A model generated the notes under the pieces. The model was not told the DNA's origin. It worked only from the letters and a program-made list of their open reading frames with translations, and did not search any database. From contig OX597824.1 in NCBI GenBank assembly GCA_951406725.2, forward strand, positions 2,914,001 through 2,978,000: a stretch of 64,000 bases of DNA. Reading direction: 5' to 3'. The position numbers and the translations under genes were made by a program. The DNA is from Octopus vulgaris (taxonomy: Eukaryota). This document shows positions 342 to 60,942 of this stretch, piece by piece. Within the stretch, counting starts at the first letter, position 1; every line of letters begins with the position of its first letter.

Positions 342-680
342 CACGTACATATATATTACATACATATGCATATGTGTATACACACGCGTGCGCGTATACA
401 TATTTTACACCGCAAACTTTACATGGAAAAGGAAAAAGTGACGTGGAATTTCGGCTTGCTCACCTTCGAAGTCACTGTCATACTCATAAATCGCTATTAT
501 GTTTAACATAGTATAATAACAAATACATGTGTGTTTGTATATATTTACATATATATATATATATATTATGTACACGTAAAGTTAATCCAAACATGAAAAC
601 ACAGAGAGAAAATGCAACGCAAGGACGGGGAACAAATATAGTGTTATTGGACGCTCAGGAAAGGAAAAAAAGAAGGAGGA

Positions 681-713
681 TTTAACGTTTCGAGCGGAGC
701 TCTTCGTCAGAAA
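681..713 (-). ncRNA. Minimal type I hammerhead ribozyme motif (Penelope pLTR type)
   Basis: Minus strand reads ttt CTGACGA a GAGC-tcc-GCTC GAAA cg TT aaa: core boxes, 4-bp stem II, palindromic ACGT stem III and short stem I. Lies in a ~200-bp unit flanked by (TA)n. Confidence 0.65.
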
Positions 714-1320
714 CATAGGAAAAGGAAAGATCCAAGGAAGGGAAGACGGGGGAGAACAACTCACCAACGGTACACAGGCGGTCATATATATATATATATG
801 TACGTATGTATGTATATTATATATATACACACACATGTGTGTATGATTGTGCATAGAAGAATATATTGCTCAAAGAAATTGCAACTTTGATTTTCACGTT
901 ATATTTACAATCTTATAATAATATAATATAAGGTAATATATAATGTAATGAAATGATAGAATATCAGATGTCCATTCCGATAGAACTTGTACTTTCATGG
1001 CTTAAACTATGCAATCTTCAGGATCATGTAGTTGTGGTAACCGTCATGTTTTGCAATTTGCAACTGCGGTCACATGGCTTAATTGTGCGCCTTAAATACA
1101 TTTGTATAGGATCCAGAATCTTAATTTATGCAAACTGTATTCTGACCAATCAGCGTATGGTTTTACTAAAATACTTCAGTTGATTGGTGTTTGGTTTAGG
1201 CGTCACGGTTTGTTAAACATCTCAATAGACCTGTATTTTGACCGTGGCCAAAGCAGTAATTGTTGGGCTATTTTTAGAAATGTTGTAAACAACATTTCTC
1301 AGGGATTTCTACATTTCAAT

Positions 1321-5828: not shown

Positions 5829-8800
5829 TCACCCATCTTTTTTAAAACATTCGCTAGACAAAACTTGCCTCTCAACTCTCACTTTCCTTTTCAAGTGGTA
5901 CTTGAAGAAGTTGATGAGAGATTGACCAGAGAGGAAAGTGTTTGTCTCCAATCCTTTCAGACGCGTCCACCAGATACATTCTTTCGCCATAGCCACAAGG
6001 ATGATGAAAATAGCTCTTCCTTCCCGTTTGAAGGAAGGAGGCGCGACAATATTGACGATAGACTCAGCTGATAAACCGACTCGTCCCACACGTGACAGCA
6101 GTTGTTCGACATAAGCCCACAGGTCGGAAATTGTTGGACACTGCACGAGTGCGTGCAGAACGGTTTCGTCGCTCTGACCGCATCTCGGGCAGGTCGGCCC
6201 CGTGTTTCTCGAGCCGTGTCTGTAGAGCTTATCCCGAACGGGTAGCGCTTCTCGGTAGCACTGCCAGGCCAGGGATCTCTGGAAGTTGTCCATGGGCCCT
6301 GGCCCGAAAGTCGTCCTGAACAGGCGGGTCAGGTACTCCTCGTCGACGTCCAGGTTCGCCCCGAGCTCGTCGTCGTACCTCCCCTCCATTAATCCCCTAT
6401 AGAATGCTTTGGTTGTGTTGAAGTCACTCAAGGTCGACCCAGGACGGCAGAGTTGCTTGAGAGCAACGCGACACTCGCGCTGCCATTCGCCCTTCCTCGG
6501 CCTCTTTTTGATCCACGACTGCAGTTCGGTCATGGAGACGAGCTGCGGGAAAGCGTGCCTCACAAACGGCGACCACACCTGTTCACCGTCGTCTACATAG
6601 AGCCAGAGATGTCGCAGTCTCAGCACGTGTCTGCGCATCATCAACCACGGCATGCCCAGTCCTCCTTTTAACGGGTGTTGACAGCAAATGGATTGCCTGA
6701 CCATCGGGACGCATCCTTTCCACAAGAAGCGAAAGAGAATGCGTTGTAGTTTGGTGATGGTAGGGTCGGGAGAAGGCACGACGGTCAGGCGGTAGTAGAT
6801 GACGGACGCGATGTACGTGTTCGCCACCCCCGCCCGACCTTTTAGGGACAGTTTCCTCTCGGCCCATTGCCGGGCGAGAGTGACCACCCTCCTCGTTATC
6901 TCGTTCCAGTTCTTTTCCACTTGGAGGTCCGGACCAAACCAGACCCCAAGCAACTCAACCGGGCCGTCGGTCCAGCGTCCCACGACGGAGGAGCTGGTGG
7001 ACGGCATGGGCTTGTTTCTCCAGGTGCCTAGTCGCAAGCCCACTGACTTTTCCCGGTTGATTTTCGCTCCTGTCACCGCTTCGTAGTTTTTCAGTGTCTC
7101 GCCGACCAGCTCGATGTGCTCGTGGCTAGACACTATGACGGTGACGTCGTCCGCGTATGCAGACACGCTCGTCCCGCATCCCAGTTCTCGCGGGATGCCC
7201 CTCAAAGTTGCCAGCTTCCGCAATAATGGCTCGAGAGTCAATACGTATAGAAGCGACGAGAGGGGACATCCCTGACGGACCGAACGTGCGATGTCGAAGG
7301 GTCTCGATAGATGTCCATTCACGCGAATTACCGAACGGATGCCTCTGTACAAAGCGGCTATCCAGCCGCGGAAGACGGGACCGAAGCCAGCCGCTCTGAG
7401 GACCGCCTCCAAGTATCGATGGTCCACCCTATCGAAAGCTTTCGATTGATCCAAATTGATCAGCGCTCCACCCATGCCAGGTTCGTTAACTACCCTGTCT
7501 ATGATGTAGCGCATCAGATGGAGGTTGTCATGGATGGTCCGGCCCGGCACGGCGCATGTTTGCGCCTTGTCGACTAGTTTCTCGATGACAAGCGCCAACC
7601 TCTTGGCTAGCACCTTGGCCAAAATTTTCAAGTCTGCATTAAGCAGAGTGATGGGCCTAAAGTTATCTATTACATTTCCCTTGTTTAGATCTTTCTTCAG
7701 CAGTGTTACGGCTCCTCGGCTCACAAAACCAGGAATGGTCCCGTTTTGCTGCCAGTTGCAGTACACCACCGCCAAGAGATCTCCAAACAAGTCTGGCATA
7801 CAATTGTAAAGCTCGTAGGGTAGACCATCCAAACCCGGTGATTTGTCCCTCGAGCATTCTGCCATCGCGTCCTGCACTTCCGCCGCCGTGATGGCACCTT
7901 CGCAGCACCCTGCCTTTCTTGTCGAGAGTCGTGGTAGGCTATGTAGGTAGGCACTGAAGTCCACCCTACGTTCTTGCCCTCCACTCGTCCCGAACAGTCG
8001 GGCAAAATGCTGCTGAAAGGCCTCACACATTTTACTTGGCTCGAGCAATTCGCGCCCCTGTTTATCTACCAGGGACCGAATGGTGGCTTTGTTGCCCTGT
8101 TGCGCCTCTGCCACCCGGGCCTCTCTCGCGGCTCCAACACCTTCGTTCCTTAGAGCACGCATCCTAGCTCTGACAGCACATCCTTCGTGTTTGGCGTTGA
8201 AGTGTTGGTCGAGGGCCAACCTCGCCGCCAAAACGTCGGATGCGATGCCGCTTCTAATTGCCTCTTCTAGCTTCTTAACTAGCTCACCCTCTACTCTATT
8301 TCTATCTATGGCTAGTGCTTTGCTGTACCTAATCGCTTCTGCTTTTACTGCTCTCTTGAGGGCAAACCACCATTTGATGTTGATGATGGCTCCCGTCAAA
8401 GCTCTCTTTACTAGTGTGCTAATCCGGTCTCTGAAAACCTGTCTCGATGGGAAAGACGCGTTTAGTTTCCAGTATCCTGGACCCTGCCTAAGTGTCTTAC
8501 CTAAGCCTAGCGTACATGTCACAAGTTTGTGATCCGTGTAGCTGACAATGTGGAATTGTGGACATCCTATGCTATCTCTGTCTACTGTCCTACACAGTAT
8601 CCTATCTAGATACGATCTCGACGACCCGATGCGGTTGTTCCATGTCCACGTTGGCGCATTCGGGTGGTCAGACAGTTCAAAGCGTCTGAGCAGGTCTCTG
8701 AGGTATTTGCATCCCCGTCTATTCCTATCTCTACCCACGTAGTCTACATGCATGTCCAAGGTAGCATTCCAATCCCCCACTAAGAGTAAAGAACGAGACG

Positions 8801-9194
8801 TTCCCAAGAATACTTCTAGACGTTGAAAGAAATCCGCCCGACCCGTTAAGGGCGGTGCGTAGACTGTTACGAGTCGAAAAGCGCACCCATTGCTGCTGTC
8901 GACATCCAGGACGACCAGTCTACCCTCCGGGTCTACGAATATTGTCCTTACTTTGAGATCCAGACTCTTGCGAAAAAATACCGCGGTGCCACTACCGCCC
9001 ATTCTCGGCAGACAGGGGGGAAAATAAATGTTGAACTGTCCGCCAAACATGGTCTTTAGGGCCCGCGGATTGTGGAGTCTGGTCTCACTTATGGCTATGA
9101 TTTCTAACTTATGTGACTTTATGTCATTTAAGAGGTACCCTTGTTTCCAAGGGCACCCCAAGCCACGTGCATTTACACAACCAATCTTGATCAT
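5829..9194 (-). CDS. ORF2 polyprotein: AP-like endonuclease, reverse transcriptase and C-terminal CCHC zinc finger (Tx1-like)
   Basis: APE motifs NARGL, ISET, GDWN, YLDRI, TDHK. RT motifs SPGLDG, FRPITLLN, DQSKAFDRV, VRQGCPLS, YADD, LLGVWF, GGLG. C-terminal CPRC..ETVLHALVQC. An A-run frameshift near 5840 gives FKKDG*; the shifted frame continues RWVNVARMARMNDEATLSIIL* to about 5773. Confidence 0.93.
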   Translation of the reverse strand: MIKIGCVNARGLGCPWKQGYLLNDIKSHKLEIIAISETRLHNPRALKTMFGGQFNIYFPPCLPRMGGSGTAVFFRKSLDLKVRTIFVDPEGRLVVLDVDSSNGCAFRLVTVYAPPLTGRADFFQRLEVFLGTSRSLLLVGDWNATLDMHVDYVGRDRNRRGCKYLRDLLRRFELSDHPNAPTWTWNNRIGSSRSYLDRILCRTVDRDSIGCPQFHIVSYTDHKLVTCTLGLGKTLRQGPGYWKLNASFPSRQVFRDRISTLVKRALTGAIINIKWWFALKRAVKAEAIRYSKALAIDRNRVEGELVKKLEEAIRSGIASDVLAARLALDQHFNAKHEGCAVRARMRALRNEGVGAAREARVAEAQQGNKATIRSLVDKQGRELLEPSKMCEAFQQHFARLFGTSGGQERRVDFSAYLHSLPRLSTRKAGCCEGAITAAEVQDAMAECSRDKSPGLDGLPYELYNCMPDLFGDLLAVVYCNWQQNGTIPGFVSRGAVTLLKKDLNKGNVIDNFRPITLLNADLKILAKVLAKRLALVIEKLVDKAQTCAVPGRTIHDNLHLMRYIIDRVVNEPGMGGALINLDQSKAFDRVDHRYLEAVLRAAGFGPVFRGWIAALYRGIRSVIRVNGHLSRPFDIARSVRQGCPLSSLLYVLTLEPLLRKLATLRGIPRELGCGTSVSAYADDVTVIVSSHEHIELVGETLKNYEAVTGAKINREKSVGLRLGTWRNKPMPSTSSSVVGRWTDGPVELLGVWFGPDLQVEKNWNEITRRVVTLARQWAERKLSLKGRAGVANTYIASVIYYRLTVVPSPDPTITKLQRILFRFLWKGCVPMVRQSICCQHPLKGGLGMPWLMMRRHVLRLRHLWLYVDDGEQVWSPFVRHAFPQLVSMTELQSWIKKRPRKGEWQRECRVALKQLCRPGSTLSDFNTTKAFYRGLMEGRYDDELGANLDVDEEYLTRLFRTTFGPGPMDNFQRSLAWQCYREALPVRDKLYRHGSRNTGPTCPRCGQSDETVLHALVQCPTISDLWAYVEQLLSRVGRVGLSAESIVNIVAPPSFKREGRAIFIILVAMAKECIWWTRLKGLETNTFLSGQSLINFFKYHLKRKVRVERQVLSSECFKKDG

Positions 9195-9238
9195 AATCCT
9201 AATGAATTAGAATACAAGTGAAAGGAACAGAGGGTTAC

Positions 9239-32350: not shown

Positions 32351-32538
32351 TGTGTACTTTTATATCATCCTTCCAACTGATTTGGAGTACTTGATTCATA
32401 CATTTTGTTACTCTACTCTATACACACACACACACACGCACACACACACACGCATACACACACACAAATACATACATATATATATATATATACACACATT
32501 TTTTCTCTCTTTGTTCTCTCCTTGTTTTTTCTGTGTCC

Positions 32539-32574
32539 CTTTCTGTAGAAGAGCGTAGGCTCGAAACGTAAAAG
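32539..32574 (+). ncRNA. Minimal type I hammerhead-like motif with A6U core variant
   Basis: cttt CTGTAGA a GAGC-gtag-GCTC GAAA cg TA aaag, within a microsatellite-flanked unit at 32498-32666. Confidence 0.55.
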
Positions 32575-32827
32575 ACTTTTTTCTATTCATGAGCGTTATA
32601 CTAATACTTCTGTATGTTTTGTACACCACCTGTTATCATCTTTTGTTTTTTTCGTAAAGTCTCTCTATATATATATACACATACATACGTACATATGTAT
32701 GTATACACACATACATACATAAATACATATATACGTACATATATATATATATATATATATACATACATACATAAATACATATATATATATGTACACAGAT
32801 ATACATATATATACACACGCACACACG

Positions 32828-43778: not shown

Positions 43779-46173
43779 AACTTAGAATAACTTAGAAAGG
43801 TTTTGGCCAGTATTGGCCCAGGCCATGTCTAACTTAATAGCACCACCTGGCGAAGTCTTTCAGTTCAGGATTTGGGCACCAAGGCCCATTCGATTTGGGC
43901 ACCAAGCCCATTCGAACATCTTAATACAATTTCAGCTTCTCTAGTCTACCCCAGTAGTCAAGGTCTGACATGCCATCTATCTTTTTTGTGATTGACCTTT
44001 GGGGAGCTTCAATTCTCATAATATTTTGTTTTGTGTAGGGAGACCACAGTGGACAGCAGTATTCAAGGTGGGGTCGGGCAAAAGTGGAGAAAAGAAGGAT
44101 AATAGCGTGGGAATCTCTCGACTGGAAGGTTCTGAGAATCCAGGAACACATTCTGCGGGCCATGTCAACTTTGCTGCTTATATGTGTAGCCCAGCTTATG
44201 TTGTTGTCCACTGTTACTCCCAGGTCTCTGATGTTGTTGGATGCCATGAGAATTTCTCCAGAAGGAAGAGAGTATGGGAGTTTCAGAGCGTCCTCCCTTC
44301 CAAAGTGGATCAGTTCGAATTTGTCTTCATTTAGCAACATGTTATTCTTTTCCGCCCATTGGACAACAGCCAGTAGGTCTGACTGAAGGTTTATTCGGTC
44401 ATCCACGCCATTGATGACCTTCTGGAGCTTGGAATCATCAGCGAAGGTTCTGATGTTACTGTGTTTGATGGTGTCAGTAATATCATTTATGTAGATGATG
44501 AAGAGAAGTGGGCCCAACACAGTGCCTTGTGGGACACCACTGCTGACTTTGGCTGGGCTGGATTTGACTCCTTCGACTACAACATGTTGGGTTCTGTTAG
44601 ACAGGAAGCACTTGATCCACTGCAGCAGCTTTCCAGTGACACCAATATTGGACAGCTTTCTCAGAAGGATCTTATGATCAACCCTGTCAAAGGCCTTGCT
44701 GAAATCAAGGTAGATGACATCAGTGTTGGAACCTTCTACCAAGGCTCTCAAAATGTCATCAAAATGATGCAGTAGCTGCGTCAGGCAATCTCTCCCATTA
44801 CGGAATCCATGCTGGTTGGGGTTCAGCATATTATGACTCTCAGGAAGTGAGTCATACGCGATCTCAGCACCCTCTCAAATACCTTGATGATATGAGAGGT
44901 GAGTGAGATTGGACGGTAATTCACGGCAAGCGATTTGTTTCCTTTTTTGAAAACTGGGACAACAGACTGGGATAGAAGGTCTTCTGGTATATATCCAGCA
45001 TTCAATGAGTTCCGCCACAGATTGGCTAGAGGGGGTGCAAGTTGGTTTTGACACATCTTCAAAACACAAGCAGGGAACTTATCGGGACCTACTGCTGAAT
45101 TATGCTTCATTTCCTTTATTGCTGCTAAGACATCAGGAGCGCCAAATGTTATGTCCGATAAAGTGTATTGGGGAGTAACATCACTGATACAGCCCAGATC
45201 AGTCATATCAGGATTGCTGAAAACAGAGCAATATTGTTTCTGCAATATCTCTCCCATGGTTTTGGCATTGTCTTGAAGAGTACCATTTTCATCAATCAGA
45301 GGGCCAAAAGTAGAACCAGTGACTCTGTGTTTTTTTGCAAATGAAAAGAACACTTTGGGATTGAGTTTAATCTTCTCAATGGTCCAGGCCTCTTCAGCTC
45401 TTCGCTGACTATTGATGATAGACATCATGTTGTTTTGGAGTTTATGTTTTTTAATCTCTAGCGACGAGATGGCAGTCAGGTTGGTGTGTTGCTGTTGACA
45501 GTATTTCAGCATGTTGATCTTTTTGTTGATTCTTTTAATTTTCCTTATGAGAGATTTTCTATTTCTAGGGATTCGACACTTAGATTTGTTTGCAGATCTT
45601 AATGGGGTGTGTCTTGCACATATGTTCGTGATGGTGTCTACAAGTGACTGCCAGGACTTTTTGATGTTAGTGGGTGTGTATGTGTGCGTGAAGGACCAAT
45701 CGACTTGTGCAAGATCATTATTGATCGCTTCCCAGTTTGCATTGTGGAAATCCATAGTGTCAAATGGATGAACAGGAAGGATGACATTTGTTTTGCATTT
45801 TGGCCAGTGAAATCTCAGATCACAGAGAACCATGTCATGGTCGGAGAGTAGGGTTTTCTCCACTGCAATATTGTGGATAGTATCAGTGTGATTGCTGAAA
45901 ATTAAGTCTAAGACGTTTTTTTGAGATCTCGTTGGTTCGAGTACCAGTTGGGACAAGAAGAAGTCATCCATGAAGTCAAGAAGCGATTCCACTTCCTCCC
46001 TATCAGGGGTTGAGAGAGAAGAACCTGGCGGCAGACTGTTTGTAGACCAGTCAACCCCGGAAAGGTTGAAGTCTCCCATCATTAAAATGTTGTCAGGTTG
46101 ACACTGCTGAATGAAACACTTTATGCTGTTGAGGCATTCCTTGAAGCATGGTAGGGGCGTTTGGGGTGGTCTG
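43779..46173 (-). mobile_element. 5'-truncated CR1-like LINE with an internal deletion, inserted in the (TATG)n satellite
   Basis: Partial APE (MGDFN, VLDLIFS, LSDH) and RT. The ORF stops at KLKLY where related copies continue YSL.RR. A short 3' UTR ends in TTCTAAGTT x2. Confidence 0.85.
43921..46170 (-). pseudogene. CR1-like APE-RT ORF with a one-base frameshift at ~44830
   Basis: SAVGPDK, NYRPISLTS, NQHGFR, DFSKAFDRV, GVPQGTVLGP, FADD, DLGV and LEYCCPLWSP, spread over ORFs 44823-46457 and 43921-44829. Confidence 0.88.
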
Positions 46174-46572
46174 TGTATGTATGTATGTGTTGTATGTATG
46201 TATGTATGTATGTATGTATGTATGTATGTATGTATGTATGTATGTATGTATGTATGTATGCATTGTATGTATGTATGTGTTGTATGTATGTATGCATTGT
46301 ATGTATGTATGTATGTGTTGTATGTATGTATGTATATATGTATGTATATATGTATGTATGTATGCATTGTATGTATGTATGTATATATGTGTTGTATGTA
46401 TGTATGTATGTATGTGTGTATGTATGTATGTATGTATGTATGTATGTATGTATGCATTGTATGTATGTATGCATTGTATGTATATATGTATGCATTGTAT
46501 GTATGTATGTATGTGTTGTATGTATGTATGTATGTATGTATGTGTTGTATGTATGTGTTGTATGTATGTGTG
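46174..46572. repeat. Complex (TATG)n satellite, right of the CR1 element
   Basis: Same variant units as 43402-43778. Confidence 0.92.
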
Positions 46573-46865
46573 TAGCTTTCTGTTTAGAGCAGATGACAAA
46601 GTCTATTCATAAATTAGAAAGTACATTACATCTCTCTCTCTCTCTCTTCATCTCTCTAACACACACTCTCTATCTCTGACACACACAATCTCTCTCACAC
46701 ATTCTCTCTCTTCCTCTCTCTCTCTCTCTCTCTCACACACCATCTCTCTTTCTCTTTCATAAGACTTAAGAATGTATCATTGTGTTAAAGACAGCAGCTA
46801 AATGACTGAGCGTCATTGGCGTCAACTACAGTTTTGCGCAAATATGGCGACAGGACAAGTTCACC

Positions 46866-47084
46866 GGAGTGGCTGTGTAGTAAGAGGCTTCCCAACCACA
46901 TGGTTCCGGGTTCAGTCCCGCTGCATGCCACCTGCTATAGCTTGCACCGACCAAAGCTTTGTGAGTAGATTTCGTAGACGGAAATTGAAAGAAGCCCGTC
47001 ATGTATATATATATATATATATATATGGATTAAGTCTTTCTTTGTTTGATTTGCATAATAGTGGTTTTGTCTCTAATTAATATG

Positions 47085-47156
<72 letters not shown>

Positions 47157-55069: not shown

Positions 55070-55290
55070 GGCGGCGAGTTGGCAGAAACGTTAGCACGCC
55101 GGGCGAAATGCGTAGCCGTATTTCGTCTGCCGTTACGTTCTGAGTTCAAATTCCACCGAGATCGACTTTGCCTTTCATCATTTCGGGGTCGATAAATTAA
55201 GTACCACTTACGCACTGGGGTCGATGTAATCCGTTTGTCTGTCCTTGCTTGTCCTCTCTGTGTTTAGCCCGTTGTGGGTAGGAGTGAAAT
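55070..55290 (+). mobile_element. SINE family A, full length, with 14-bp TSD
   Basis: TSD AGATATAAGGTCTG at 55052-55065 and 55291-55304. Confidence 0.9.
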
Positions 55291-55601
55291 AGATATAAGG
55301 TCTGAGGTGTTGTTCTTCCTTCTCAGCTTAATACGCAAAGAAACAAACAAGAGAAAGTCTATATTTTATATATTTTATATATTCTGTCTGTAATGTAAAT
55401 TGTCAGGAATTATTAAGTATAATACGTTCATTCTATTCCCACTCGGTTAGATTCCAATGTTCTATTCTGTTCTTTTCTTGCATTCGCTCTGTCAATAGAA
55501 GGTTCACTTTCAACTAAGTTTCTGAGGTGAACTTCAGACAATATTCATAATATTGGTGATGGTGGTGGTGGTGGTGTCGGCGGTGATGATGATGATGATG
55601 A

Positions 55602-55770
55602 TTTCAAATTTTGGCACAAGGCCAGCAATTTCGGGGGTGGGCTAAGTCGACTATATCGATCCCAGTGCTCAACTGTTACTCATTTTATCGACCCTGTAAA
55701 GATAAAAGGCAAAGTCGACCTCGCCTGAATTTGAACTCAGAAGGTCAAGATAGATGAAATGCAGCTAAGT
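55602..55770 (-). mobile_element. Older SINE, family A head with tail B ending in (ATC)n
   Basis: Minus strand TTCTGAGTTCAAATTC..GGGTCGATAAAATGAG..AATTGCTGGCCTTGTGCCAAAATTTGAAATCATC. Confidence 0.7.
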
Positions 55771-56116
55771 ATTGTGGTGGTGGGATTCTGCTGTTGAAAA
55801 TGTTGCGTTAATGACTGTTGTTGCAGCTTCTGGCCTTCGTGTGGTGGTGGTGGTGGTGGTGGTAGCAGAGCCGCCGTTTCTCAAGCTCTATTTTGTTGAT
55901 TTTGTGAGCAGTCGACCTTCAAATGAACGTCAGACCTACAAGTGTGCACCTTAGCTTTCTGCCAATATGGTTGTGATGCATGTGCCTGGTGTACCCTTAT
56001 CAGACGGGTAGTCATGATGAGTATACTAAACGTCGTATATTTTACCCCAGTGTCACTTTGATGGCATGCACTGTTCTCTCACTCAATAATAATAATGATG
56101 ATAATTCAATGGAAAC

Positions 56117-57947: not shown

Positions 57948-57992
<45 letters not shown>

Positions 57993-57998
<6 letters not shown>

Positions 57999-58612
57999 GA
58001 AATATTAAAATTAATAAGTCTCTCTAAAAGAGAACAGCGGCAGCGTTCCCGGAAAATAATAGTTATCGCCATACTAATATGGCATTCTTATAAAAATAAG
58101 AATAAAGCTGTCCACTTATTAGCTCCATGAGGCCATCGCCTTAAGTTAGCTATTTGATACACAAACTGTATCCATATAACCTTCGAACAAGGGAGGTCAG
58201 TTGCTCCACACTACTTGACCGGCTGCTACAGACGCGTTTCGGGGTATTGCCCCTTTTCAATGCAGCGTAGCCAGCCAGTAGGTGTCGCTTCCGACAATCC
58301 CTGTTTGATGGTTTTATTTACCTAGTTTCGGTGGAATACATCCACTTGTTTTCAATAATAGAAATATTAAAATTACTAAGTCTCTCTAAAAGAGAACAGC
58401 GGCAGCGTTTCCGGAAAATAATAGTTATCGCCATACTAATATGGCATTCTTATAAAAATAAGAATAAAGCTGTGCACTTATTAGCTCCATGAGGCCATCG
58501 CCTTAAGTTAGCTATTTGATACACAAACTGTATCCATATAATAAGTGGACAGCTTTATTCTTATTTTTATAAGAATGCCATATTAGTATGGCGATAACTA
58601 TTATTTTCCGGG
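57993..58612. mobile_element. (TA)n-flanked element: 186-bp direct repeats (57993-58178, 58355-58540; period 362 bp) plus a ~70-bp inverted copy; PLE pLTR or retrozyme-like
   Basis: Repeats read directly; a hammerhead lies between the direct repeats. Confidence 0.8.
58225..58266 (-). ncRNA. Type I hammerhead ribozyme with U3-A8 covariant core
   Basis: Minus strand reads GCTGCA TTGAAAA GGGG-caata-CCCC GAAA CGCG TC TGTAGC: 6-bp stem I (one G-U), 4-bp stem II, palindromic stem III and GUC cleavage triplet. Confidence 0.8.
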
Positions 58613-58700
58613 GAAAAAATCAGATTTAGGATTAAATCCAATTTTATAGTAAAATATTATATAATATTAATTAGAGACAAAATAGTGGTTTTGTCTCTAA

Positions 58701-58777
<77 letters not shown>

Positions 58778-58783
58778 TATCCA

Positions 58784-59600
58784 GATATCCAGGTAGGAGC
58801 TGCCTGACCCAGCTCTTACAGCATTATGACTGGGTGTTGAGGCAGTTATTCAGCAAATCAAATGTGGACGTAATGCACCTTGATTTTGCAAAAGCTTTTG
58901 ACCAGTTGGATCATGGTATGATATTCCACAAACTGCGCGACTTAGGCATAACTGGAAAACTTGGAGAGTGGTTAAGTGACTTTCTGAAAGATAGAAGTCA
59001 GGCAATAGTGGCTAATGGAGACACCTCTACGAACACACAAATAGTGAGCGGTGTTCCACAGGGCACTCTCTTGGGACCACTGCTTTTTATAGTGGCCCTC
59101 TCAGATATGCCCTCAAATGCCCGGATAGCCACCCTTACAAGCTATGCAGATGATACGAAAGTCTCAGAGAACATACAGAACACTAGCGATGTTGCACACC
59201 TGCAGCAGGAGTTGGACTCAATCTACAGATGTGATGAGGATAATTATATGCAGTTTAATGCTGAAAAATTCCAAGATCCTTGAAGGAATTGTGCTAAATT
59301 TTGGCATTGAAAGCTACACCAATGCCAGAACGGGACGATACTGCATAGAGCCAAAGGTCCCGCAATGCCATCACGCTTCAGGACCAGTTACTGCAACAGC
59401 CTGGGTTTCAAGGGCCCACAGCTTTTTAATATTCTCCCAAAGAGTCTGAGGAATTTGCACAAAGTAGATGTAGGGTTTTTTAAATCAAAGCTGGACCTTT
59501 TCCTCTCGAGAGTCCCAGATGAACCTACCTCATGGCAAGAGGTGAAATGAGGGTAGCTCTATCAAACTCCATTCTTCACCAAGTGCGACATATTAGAAGA
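58784..59600 (+). mobile_element. Degenerate CR1-like LINE remnant (RT, internal deletion at ~59270)
   Basis: GRSCLTQLL, DFAKAFD, GVPQGTLLGP, YADD, GPQLFNILPK..LSRVPDEP. Confidence 0.85.
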
Positions 59601-60173: not shown

Positions 60174-60392
60174 TATTTCGTTTTGGGATTTGGTTTGCAA
60201 GATTCTTTATATGAGTTCGTGTGTTGAAGCATATTCTGTTGTGTCTGGGGAGAGTCATTTTCTTTTTGTGCCTTATAATATAACACACTCACCGGTAAAA
60301 TTTTAGGAAGCTAAGAAGAAAGTGGAAATTTTACCGGTGAGTGTGTTATATTATAAGGCACAAAAAGAAAATGACTCTCCCCAGACACAACA

Positions 60393-60398
<6 letters not shown>
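60174..60398. repeat. (TA)n-flanked palindromic element, same family as 3486-3800
   Basis: Shared TTTGGTTTGCAAGATTCTTTATATGAGTTCG.. sequence; ~74-bp perfect inverted arms spanning 60231-60398. Confidence 0.85.
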
Positions 60399-60450
<52 letters not shown>

Positions 60451-60640
60451 ATAAGTAGATAAATGGTACAACAAGGCACCAATATTTACTGGAAAATAGT
60501 AATCGATACAAATACGACGCTATTGTATACCTTCACTGCGTATATACTAGCAAAGACGCGTGTGTGCAACAAACATGAAAAAAATTGTCTTACCTCAAGG
60601 TAATCTTATAAATGGACAAACCTAGAATTTTGTCGAGGTA

Positions 60641-60713
60641 AATGCAGCTGATGAAGACTAATCAATTTTATGTTGTCAAACGTATTTGAAGAGTCAGAAA
60701 CCGGTCCTGCATT
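60641..60713 (+). ncRNA. Type I hammerhead ribozyme at the apex of a ~420-nt imperfect hairpin (60453-60872)
   Basis: AATGCAG CTGATGA a GACT..AGTC a GAAA CCGG TC CTGCATT: 7-bp perfect stem I, palindromic ACCGGT stem III and GUC triplet. An extra A before GAAA is non-canonical. Confidence 0.75.
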
Positions 60714-60942
60714 ATCCGATTCTAGGTTTTCCATTTATTGAATGTTCTTCCTAGAGGTAAGACAAATGTTTTTCATGTTTGTTGCACACACACATCTTTG
60801 CTAGTATATACGCAGTGAAGCTATACAATAGCGTCGTATTTATTACGATTGCTATTTTCCATTTATCTACTTTTATATGTATAATATTACCCTTATGGGC
60901 TATATTTTACTGGAAAGTAATACATTCGTATTGCATTATTAT

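Follow-up and report, generated by a model that had tools for sequence, protein, structure and literature searches.

Non-LTR retrozymes of animals are described as repeats with non-coding units of about 150–450 bp and a GC content under 50% (PMC7229834). The units measure 350–390 bp in Mytilus, 225–245 bp in Acropora and 331 or 353 bp in the axolotl, and mussel retrozymes of 350–390 bp form circles (PMC7229834). Circles are likewise described for the coral and axolotl retrozymes, with ligation by RtcB in vitro, and PLEs are proposed as the movers (PMC7229834, PMC7761336). Retrozymes are also reported to be related to the pseudo-LTRs (pLTRs) of PLEs, and their loci count as active only if they have two hammerhead ribozyme (HHR) units; one of nine predicted retrozyme dimers from Xenopus was cleaved (bioRxiv 10.64898/2026.07.22.740005). 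The case for any enzyme as the mover of animal retrozymes still rests on co-occurrence and on homology to pLTRs (bioRxiv 10.64898/2026.07.22.740005, PMC7229834, PMC7761336), and a 2020 review states that the retrozyme repeats have no motif indicative of a partner (PMC7761336).

PLE insertions are described as having partial tandems, an inverted truncated copy, a one-sided tail of 30–40 bp and a bias towards microsatellites (PMC8557442, PMC8969392). The PLE protein of the anole cuts both strands of AT-rich DNA, and two internal cDNA start sites, both downstream of the HHR, define the tail; the HHR depends on protein, and insertion in vitro can do without this ribozyme (PMC11167929). The ribozymes themselves come in two forms. 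Canonical metazoan HHRs have a helix I of 6 bp, a helix II of 4 bp and a helix III of 1–2 bp with a palindromic loop, and act in dimers, while the minimal HHR of PLEs has an additional base between positions 9 and 10.1, a short helix I and a long helix II (PMC4209133, which also sets out a circle model).

The element considered here occupies positions 57993–58612 of the window, the whole 64 kb stretch of DNA that was analysed. We read it, with a probability of about two in three, as a dispersed 1.5-unit copy from an abundant non-coding 362 bp family of the retrozyme type that has a predicted type I hammerhead and borrows the reverse transcriptase–endonuclease of a PLE.

Anatomy of the insertion and its surroundings

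Read along the minus strand, the element consists of an inverted arm of 74 bp, segment B2 of 187 bp, segment A of 175 bp, segment B1 of 187 bp and a (TA)n tract. B1 (57993–58179, minus strand) is the 3' part of the first complete unit and forms a string of small hairpins (fold z −3.3). A (58180–58354, minus strand) is the 5' part of the unit, is present in one copy at the locus and contains the ribozyme (fold z −5.5). B2 (58355–58541, minus strand) is a partial, 5'-truncated second lap, or pLTR. B1 and B2 are direct repeats offset by 362 bp and differ at three places (58014/58376, 58048/58410 and 58112/58474). The (TA)n tract (57949–57994, no strand), recognized from the sequence, adjoins the 3' end of the element in the RNA sense and is the likely target site. 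The 55 nt next to it (57993–58047, minus strand) correspond to the 'tail' as this concept is used in PMC8557442 and PMC11167929: they are found at this end and are missing from the inverted arm, which lacks the last 55 nt.

The inverted arm (58539–58612, plus strand) is a copy of 58121–58048. It matches B1 over 58048–58121 at 100%, has two mismatches to the adjoining B2 and meets B2 via a 3 nt overlap (TAA). A preliminary description of this DNA had proposed direct repeats of 186 bp at an offset of 362 bp and an inverted copy of ∼70 bp that resembles B1 at two sites; apart from the measured lengths of 187 and 74 bp, both features are as described. The use of these two sites as diagnostic of the template does not hold up. 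The family majority at 58410 has the B1 letter and no variant is listed at 58112. The B2 letters (58410 and 58474) are private and the inverted arm keeps the family sequence, so that private changes in B2 explain both sites and we reject a choice of B1 as template for the arm.

Foldback chimeras are common next to microsatellites, and the tandem or the inverted arm could in principle be a chimera of assembly or amplification. A chimera within one molecule would give no mismatches, whereas the arm differs from B2 at two positions and B1 from B2 at three; moreover, the unit junction and an opposite-strand joint occur in independent contigs. An artefact of this kind is extremely improbable. A MITE or DNA transposon was also considered and rejected: the inverted arm is internal and one-sided, not a pair of terminal repeats.

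No further copy of the element is present within the 64 kb window, a stretch of animal DNA rich in microsatellites in which several remnants of retroelements lie. The short interspersed repeats of the window may resemble octopus ones. Beyond the inverted arm lies a flank of unexplained origin (58613–58653, no strand), 41 bp long, which contains two small hairpins, is mostly unmatched elsewhere in the window and leads up to the next foldback. This foldback (58654–58707), beside (TA)n, matches 47054–47083 (region 47031–47090) at 29 of 30 positions and probably represents the 3' end of a different short family that has an inverted stub and is nested within this TA target too.

An intact-looking LINE ORF of 1124 amino acids with endonuclease, RT and zf-RVT domains lies in a GC-rich stretch at 5829–9203 (minus strand) and looks recent. 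Broken LINE-type RT and endonuclease fragments are found at 58705–59280 (up to 59449, plus strand) and at 43924–46583 (minus strand). The RT fragment adjacent to the element was considered as the partner enzyme and rejected, as it looks LINE-type rather than PLE-type (Pfam RVT_1) and is a separate insertion beyond a TA tract; a homologue search with it returned RVT_1 proteins, and its motifs suggest a LINE-type clade. Pfam matches were obtained for three of 30 window ORFs. A partner PLE was not found in the window: no GIY-YIG-type motif occurs in its six frames and no GIY-YIG domain in its 31 ORFs (Pfam).

Other structures in the window are set down here in their own right. A hammerhead-like motif of the PLE minimal type lies between TA tracts at about 580–780 (minus strand, core at 710), with CUGACGA plus an additional A and 4 bp helices, and a similar remnant occurs near 32530–32590. 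Foldbacks at 60231–60398 and 60490–60861 adjoin TA tracts, with arms of 73 bp (100% complementary) and 97 bp (92% complementary); they are possibly PLE-type inverted insertions or MITEs. At 55107–55773 two opposed copies of a short interspersed repeat form 125 bp arms that are 78% complementary.

A predicted hammerhead with a U3–A8 core

A type I hammerhead is predicted on the minus strand at 58225–58266, with pair probabilities of 0.94–1.0 in the folds of both the circular monomer and the whole locus. Helix I (58266–58261 with 58230–58225) has 6 bp and leads into the core U3 U4 G5 A6 A7 A8 A9 (58260–58254), a U3–A8 variant. Helix II (58253–58250 with 58244–58241, GGGG/CCCC) consists of four G–C pairs closed by loop 2, CAAUA. 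Helix III, ACGCGU (58237–58232), is palindromic and has only 2 bp. G12 A13 A14, A15.1, U16.1 and C17 are all present, with C17 at 58231 and the predicted cut between 58231 and 58230. The element at 57993–58612 contains one such hammerhead, and its helix I is prolonged in the circular fold by a predicted long rod (58174–58317, minus strand) whose 3' base coincides with the stop of the second lap (58541 = 58179).

The preliminary description had named a minus-strand HHR with the core UUGAAAA, an extended stem I and U3–A8 as a known variant, and in all three respects it was correct. The geometry is complete, and when the 620 bp are shuffled by mononucleotide 20 000 times the motif test is never passed; the extended stem has −58.6 kcal mol−1 (z −5.8), which none of 200 shuffles equals; and the variant is reported in PMC4209133 and PMC3088659. 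Rfam gives no hammerhead match at the gathering score or at E ≤ 10, and its miRNA matches over the element were set aside, as they merely reflect the foldback.

G10.1 directly follows A9 and helices I and II have 6 and 4 bp, unlike in the minimal HHR of PLEs. As modelled, the geometry is therefore that of the canonical type I hammerhead of animal retrozymes and not the minimal PLE form, with U3–A8 in its core. The swap itself is already known and is uncommon. It is reported from the minimal HHRs of Schistosoma Cercyon, with about 1300 matches (PMC4209133), and from several natural hammerheads, and as active in vitro (PMC3088659). The Cercyon motif shares both the U3–A8 covariation and the UUGAAAA heptamer with ours; its own features are an additional base after A9, a helix I of 3 bp and the lack of a helix III loop, and, unlike the present motif, it is located within the pLTR of a PLE that has coding sequence (PMC4209133). 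A search of titles and the beginnings of abstracts, with most subscription papers outside it, returned no earlier U3–A8 core in a canonical retrozyme-type unit.

These comparisons bear on another reading, in which the unit is the tandem terminal region (pLTR) of a longer autonomous PLE and the locus an ordinary 5'-truncated insertion, with no free 362 nt replicon. U3–A8 was first tied to PLEs through the Cercyon ribozymes (PMC4209133), axolotl PLEs carry tandem minimal HHRs (PMC7229834), and nothing in the partial tandem, inverted arm, tail or TA target is unusual for a PLE. The ribozyme, with its 6 and 4 bp helices and no additional base after A9, is on the other hand canonical, unlike the PLE minimal consensus, and the unit has no spanning open frame. 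The surroundings of the unit in other copies, given below, argue further against such a terminal region, and we regard it as unlikely.

The unit of 362 bp has a GC content of 0.41 and no open frame across its whole length, within the range given for non-LTR retrozymes. Folded as a circular monomer it reaches z −6.2 (0 of 60 shuffles) with 60% of its nucleotides paired and the ribozyme helices free; helices I and II have probabilities of 0.94–1.0 and the open core lies 1.1 kcal mol−1 above the minimum. The plus strand folds well too (z −8.4), as expected for a hairpin-rich sequence. Folding alone thus leaves the strand unfixed, and it is the ribozyme that fixes it.

A dispersed family with a shared junction

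Twenty of the 24 listed sequencing runs, with six organism codes, contain the stretch or part of it. Contigs of four runs (X1, X3, X13 and X16) were aligned to one unit (58086–58447) at 85% likeness; organisms C–F (share 0.41–0.53) were left out of this alignment. X1 and X3 are genomic runs of two organisms, A and B, with 2192 and 1739 aligned contigs, respectively, that cover all 28 bins. The summed contig depth, mostly 1 × 10^5 to 1.5 × 10^6 in X1 and X3, is no measure of copy number. A dip in X1 depth at 58268–58293 is given no weight, with about 80% of that run read, and a joint that appears to go back by 362 is discarded as evidence, being an artefact of cutting the aligned monomer in the middle of B. 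Exact pattern scans of metagenome contigs, viral contigs and prokaryote genomes returned no loci.

The junction 58354|58355, at which one unit passes into the next, is bridged with at least 31 letters on each side by four of eight listed records in X1 and three of eight in X3, with 4000 more records outside these listings. It is bridged in this way by none of the five records in X13 and none of the seven listed in X16. Several bridging records are diverged, with 10–12 differing letters in about 82, which makes the junction family-wide and old, not peculiar to this insertion. Judged from these contigs, the unit is an abundant repeat family whose junction is shared across two organisms, and the proposal of a more-than-unit copy of a 362 nt ribozyme-bearing unit is borne out.

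The same contigs speak against the reading as a PLE terminus, since the sequence upstream of A is once more B, both in the two organisms and among diverged forms. Judged by eye, the 20 listed loose ends consist of simple repeat, of unique flanking sequence or of a diverged homologue of the unit, and are too short to reveal a frame; there are 167 further loose ends beyond these, which leaves that reading some room. Loose ends of X1 and X3 at 58301–58314 and 58395 read as diverged homologues of the unit, and related subfamilies thus exist with which mainly 58314–58395 is shared. This junction-spanning segment (minus strand), common to the diverged relatives, is a candidate signal for recognition or initiation by the RT.

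Among the loose ends listed, the 3' ends cluster at 58355–58357, next to (TA)n: TA-rich ends at 58355 occur in 15 X1 contigs, and at 58357 a simple-repeat end is seen in a single X16 contig. The random circular permutation of copies that the preliminary description had suggested as a check is thus not what the listed ends look like. The other, 5' ends among them are variable, at 58189 and 58369. X13 and X16 each hold a contig in which the same TA-led flank is joined to the unit at 58189; this is one other genomic copy, seen in two studies.

At least 37 distinct variable places are listed for the family, 29 of them in A. Only one of the 41 constrained ribozyme positions is among them, a change from G·U to A–U. 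This depletion has P = 0.002 within part A and P = 0.057 over the whole unit, a count that is biased favourably by the exclusion of copies under 85% alike from the alignment. The free position N7 varies within the family. Paired changes noted by eye are a minor form with A–U for G–C at 58271/58222 and a double change from T–A to G–C in a hairpin of B. A minor form in X13 exits the alignment at 58247; in it G·U replaces the G–C pair that closes helix II, and loop 3 changes from GC to AU with the palindrome retained. All of these X13 changes are at CpG sites and can be explained by decay.

The locus itself differs from the family majority at 58202, 58224, 58300, 58306 and 58410. With 58014 and 58474, counted as private since no variants are listed there, this gives seven private changes in about 620 bp (∼1%). 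At 58224 the family RNA has a U right after helix I, while the A of the locus is predicted to pair with 58269, which would shut the internal loop above helix I. Presumably this loop contacts loop 2, as in the Schistosoma structure. The earlier claim of a ribozyme kept under selection thus agrees with the family, in which the listed variants are depleted from the ribozyme, but not with this copy, which has one ribozyme and ∼1% private changes. With a single ribozyme this copy alone cannot release unit-length RNA, and it is likely to be inert, a dead end.

A possible circle, proposed mobilization and class

None of the runs that contain the stretch is recorded as RNA, and six are guessed to be. 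One of these, X13, has five contigs in all that align to the unit. Record 9 of this run is 221 nt long (depth 33.8) and record 11 is 201 nt long (depth 33.9); they share 30 nt at each end and together make a closed loop of exactly 362 nt (221 + 201 − 60). Since 1.5-mers would have B at double depth, the equal depth of the two agrees better with a circle or a long tandem, of which we take it as a weak hint. Transcripts of tandem units, read-through of numerous copies or the presence of DNA in the run would give such a loop as well, and the X13 contigs carry no strand, end or level information. Three other guessed-RNA runs of organism A contain next to no matching words and have no bearing on expression. 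Overall, we lean slightly towards the existence of a natural 362 nt circle.

A PLE-derived satellite could dispense with the circle altogether: its tandem DNA would arise by unequal crossing-over, uncut multimer transcripts would occasionally be retrocopied and the ribozyme would be weak or idle. This route is proposed in the bioRxiv preprint, in which eight of nine dimers were uncleaved (bioRxiv 10.64898/2026.07.22.740005), a multimer template accounts for the 1.5-mer as well as a circle does, and helix III has just 2 bp. The depletion of listed variants from the ribozyme positions and the tendency of changes to retain pairing argue against it. So do the reported in vitro activity of U3–A8 ribozymes (PMC3088659) and the circles formed by comparable mollusc, coral and axolotl units (PMC7229834). 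We consider a satellite of this kind rather improbable.

The retrozyme-type reading with a borrowed PLE enzyme draws on the anatomy of the insertion. The locus has these features of a PLE-type insertion: the partial tandem, the 5' truncation, the inverted 5' copy and the tail at one end. The AT-rich microsatellite target and fixed 3' end are represented by the (TA)n tract here and by the TA-rich ends at 58355 in the 15 X1 contigs. The putative 3' start lies 238 nt downstream of the predicted cut site and the putative start of the inverted arm 183 nt from it. The copy runs unbroken across the predicted cut site and is longer than one unit.

In the mechanism that we propose, source copies with at least two units would be transcribed and paired ribozymes would cut once per unit, probably as dimers in view of the weak palindromic helix III. 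A host ligase would then close 362 nt circles. (TA)n DNA would be nicked by the PLE enzyme, and cDNA synthesis would be primed at one constant position inside the unit, 238 nt downstream of the cut site. At this locus the cDNA would have run for 549 nt, through the cut site and over the unit junction; on a cut linear monomer synthesis would run out after 238 nt, so that the template would have to be a circle or a multimer left uncut. The cDNA would have halted in its second lap at the 3' base of the ribozyme rod (58174–58189). A second genomic copy also ends at the rod base (58189), and these two cases in all are only suggestive of the rod base as a stop point of reverse transcription. The 74 bp inverted arm, joined by the 3 nt overlap, would stem from a second priming event on the opposite strand of the target, 55 nt deeper into the unit, and the copy would then have drifted by about 1%. 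As far as its sequence goes, the locus is likely to reflect a PLE-type enzyme that copied a retrozyme-type RNA, and retrozyme and PLE need not be an either/or.

Compared with metazoan non-LTR retrozymes, the locus is alike in unit size, GC content of 41%, lack of coding, type I HHR, high copy number and a highly paired predicted circle in which the ribozyme is free to fold (PMC7229834). It differs in its U3–A8 core, its single HHR, a circle that is only predicted, the lack of a discernible target duplication, the PLE-type inverted arm and the clustered 3' end at (TA)n. With EN+ PLEs and their pLTRs (Penelope/Poseidon, Neptune) it shares the 5' truncation, partial tandem, inverted 5' arm, one-sided tail, microsatellite target and cDNA start downstream of the HHR (PMC8557442, PMC11167929). 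Unlike these, it has no ORF, its unit closes on itself after 362 bp and its HHR is canonical. The tail is 55 nt versus the 30–40 reported for PLEs, and the distance from cDNA start to cut site is 238 nt versus about 85–92 nt in the anole PLE, as taken from the figures of PMC11167929. Non-autonomous Chlamys PLEs (for example MRC1) resemble it in being non-autonomous and in making pLTRs and head-to-tail copies, but they are green-algal and most are without canonical HHRs (PMC8557442).

An autonomous EN+ PLE has an ORF for a telomerase-like RT and a GIY-YIG endonuclease, while the present element has no ORF and is not an autonomous PLE. Its single HHR makes it a monomer-type copy rather than the two-HHR form, and we stop short of classing it as a retrozyme with proven activity. 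Arrays with two ribozymes are absent from the contigs, which collapse repeats and cannot separate 1.5-mers from longer arrays. The family is not a new class of element.

What the family offers is PLE insertion marks on a retrozyme-type unit and with them a handle on how such RNAs spread; for in vitro work with PLE protein, the start site is defined and the junction segment conserved. It also suggests that surveys based on the C3–G8 core miss whole families. The fuller picture, which we put forward only tentatively, is of a high-copy animal, possibly cephalopod, retrozyme family in at least two species, with a canonical U3–A8 hammerhead that escapes both CUGANGA descriptors and Rfam, expressed as a 362 nt circle and copied by a PLE enzyme that starts at two fixed positions within the unit, 55 nt from each other. 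If this is true, the insertions would record the mechanism of retrozyme mobilization directly, and the 82 nt segment would be the recognition signal.
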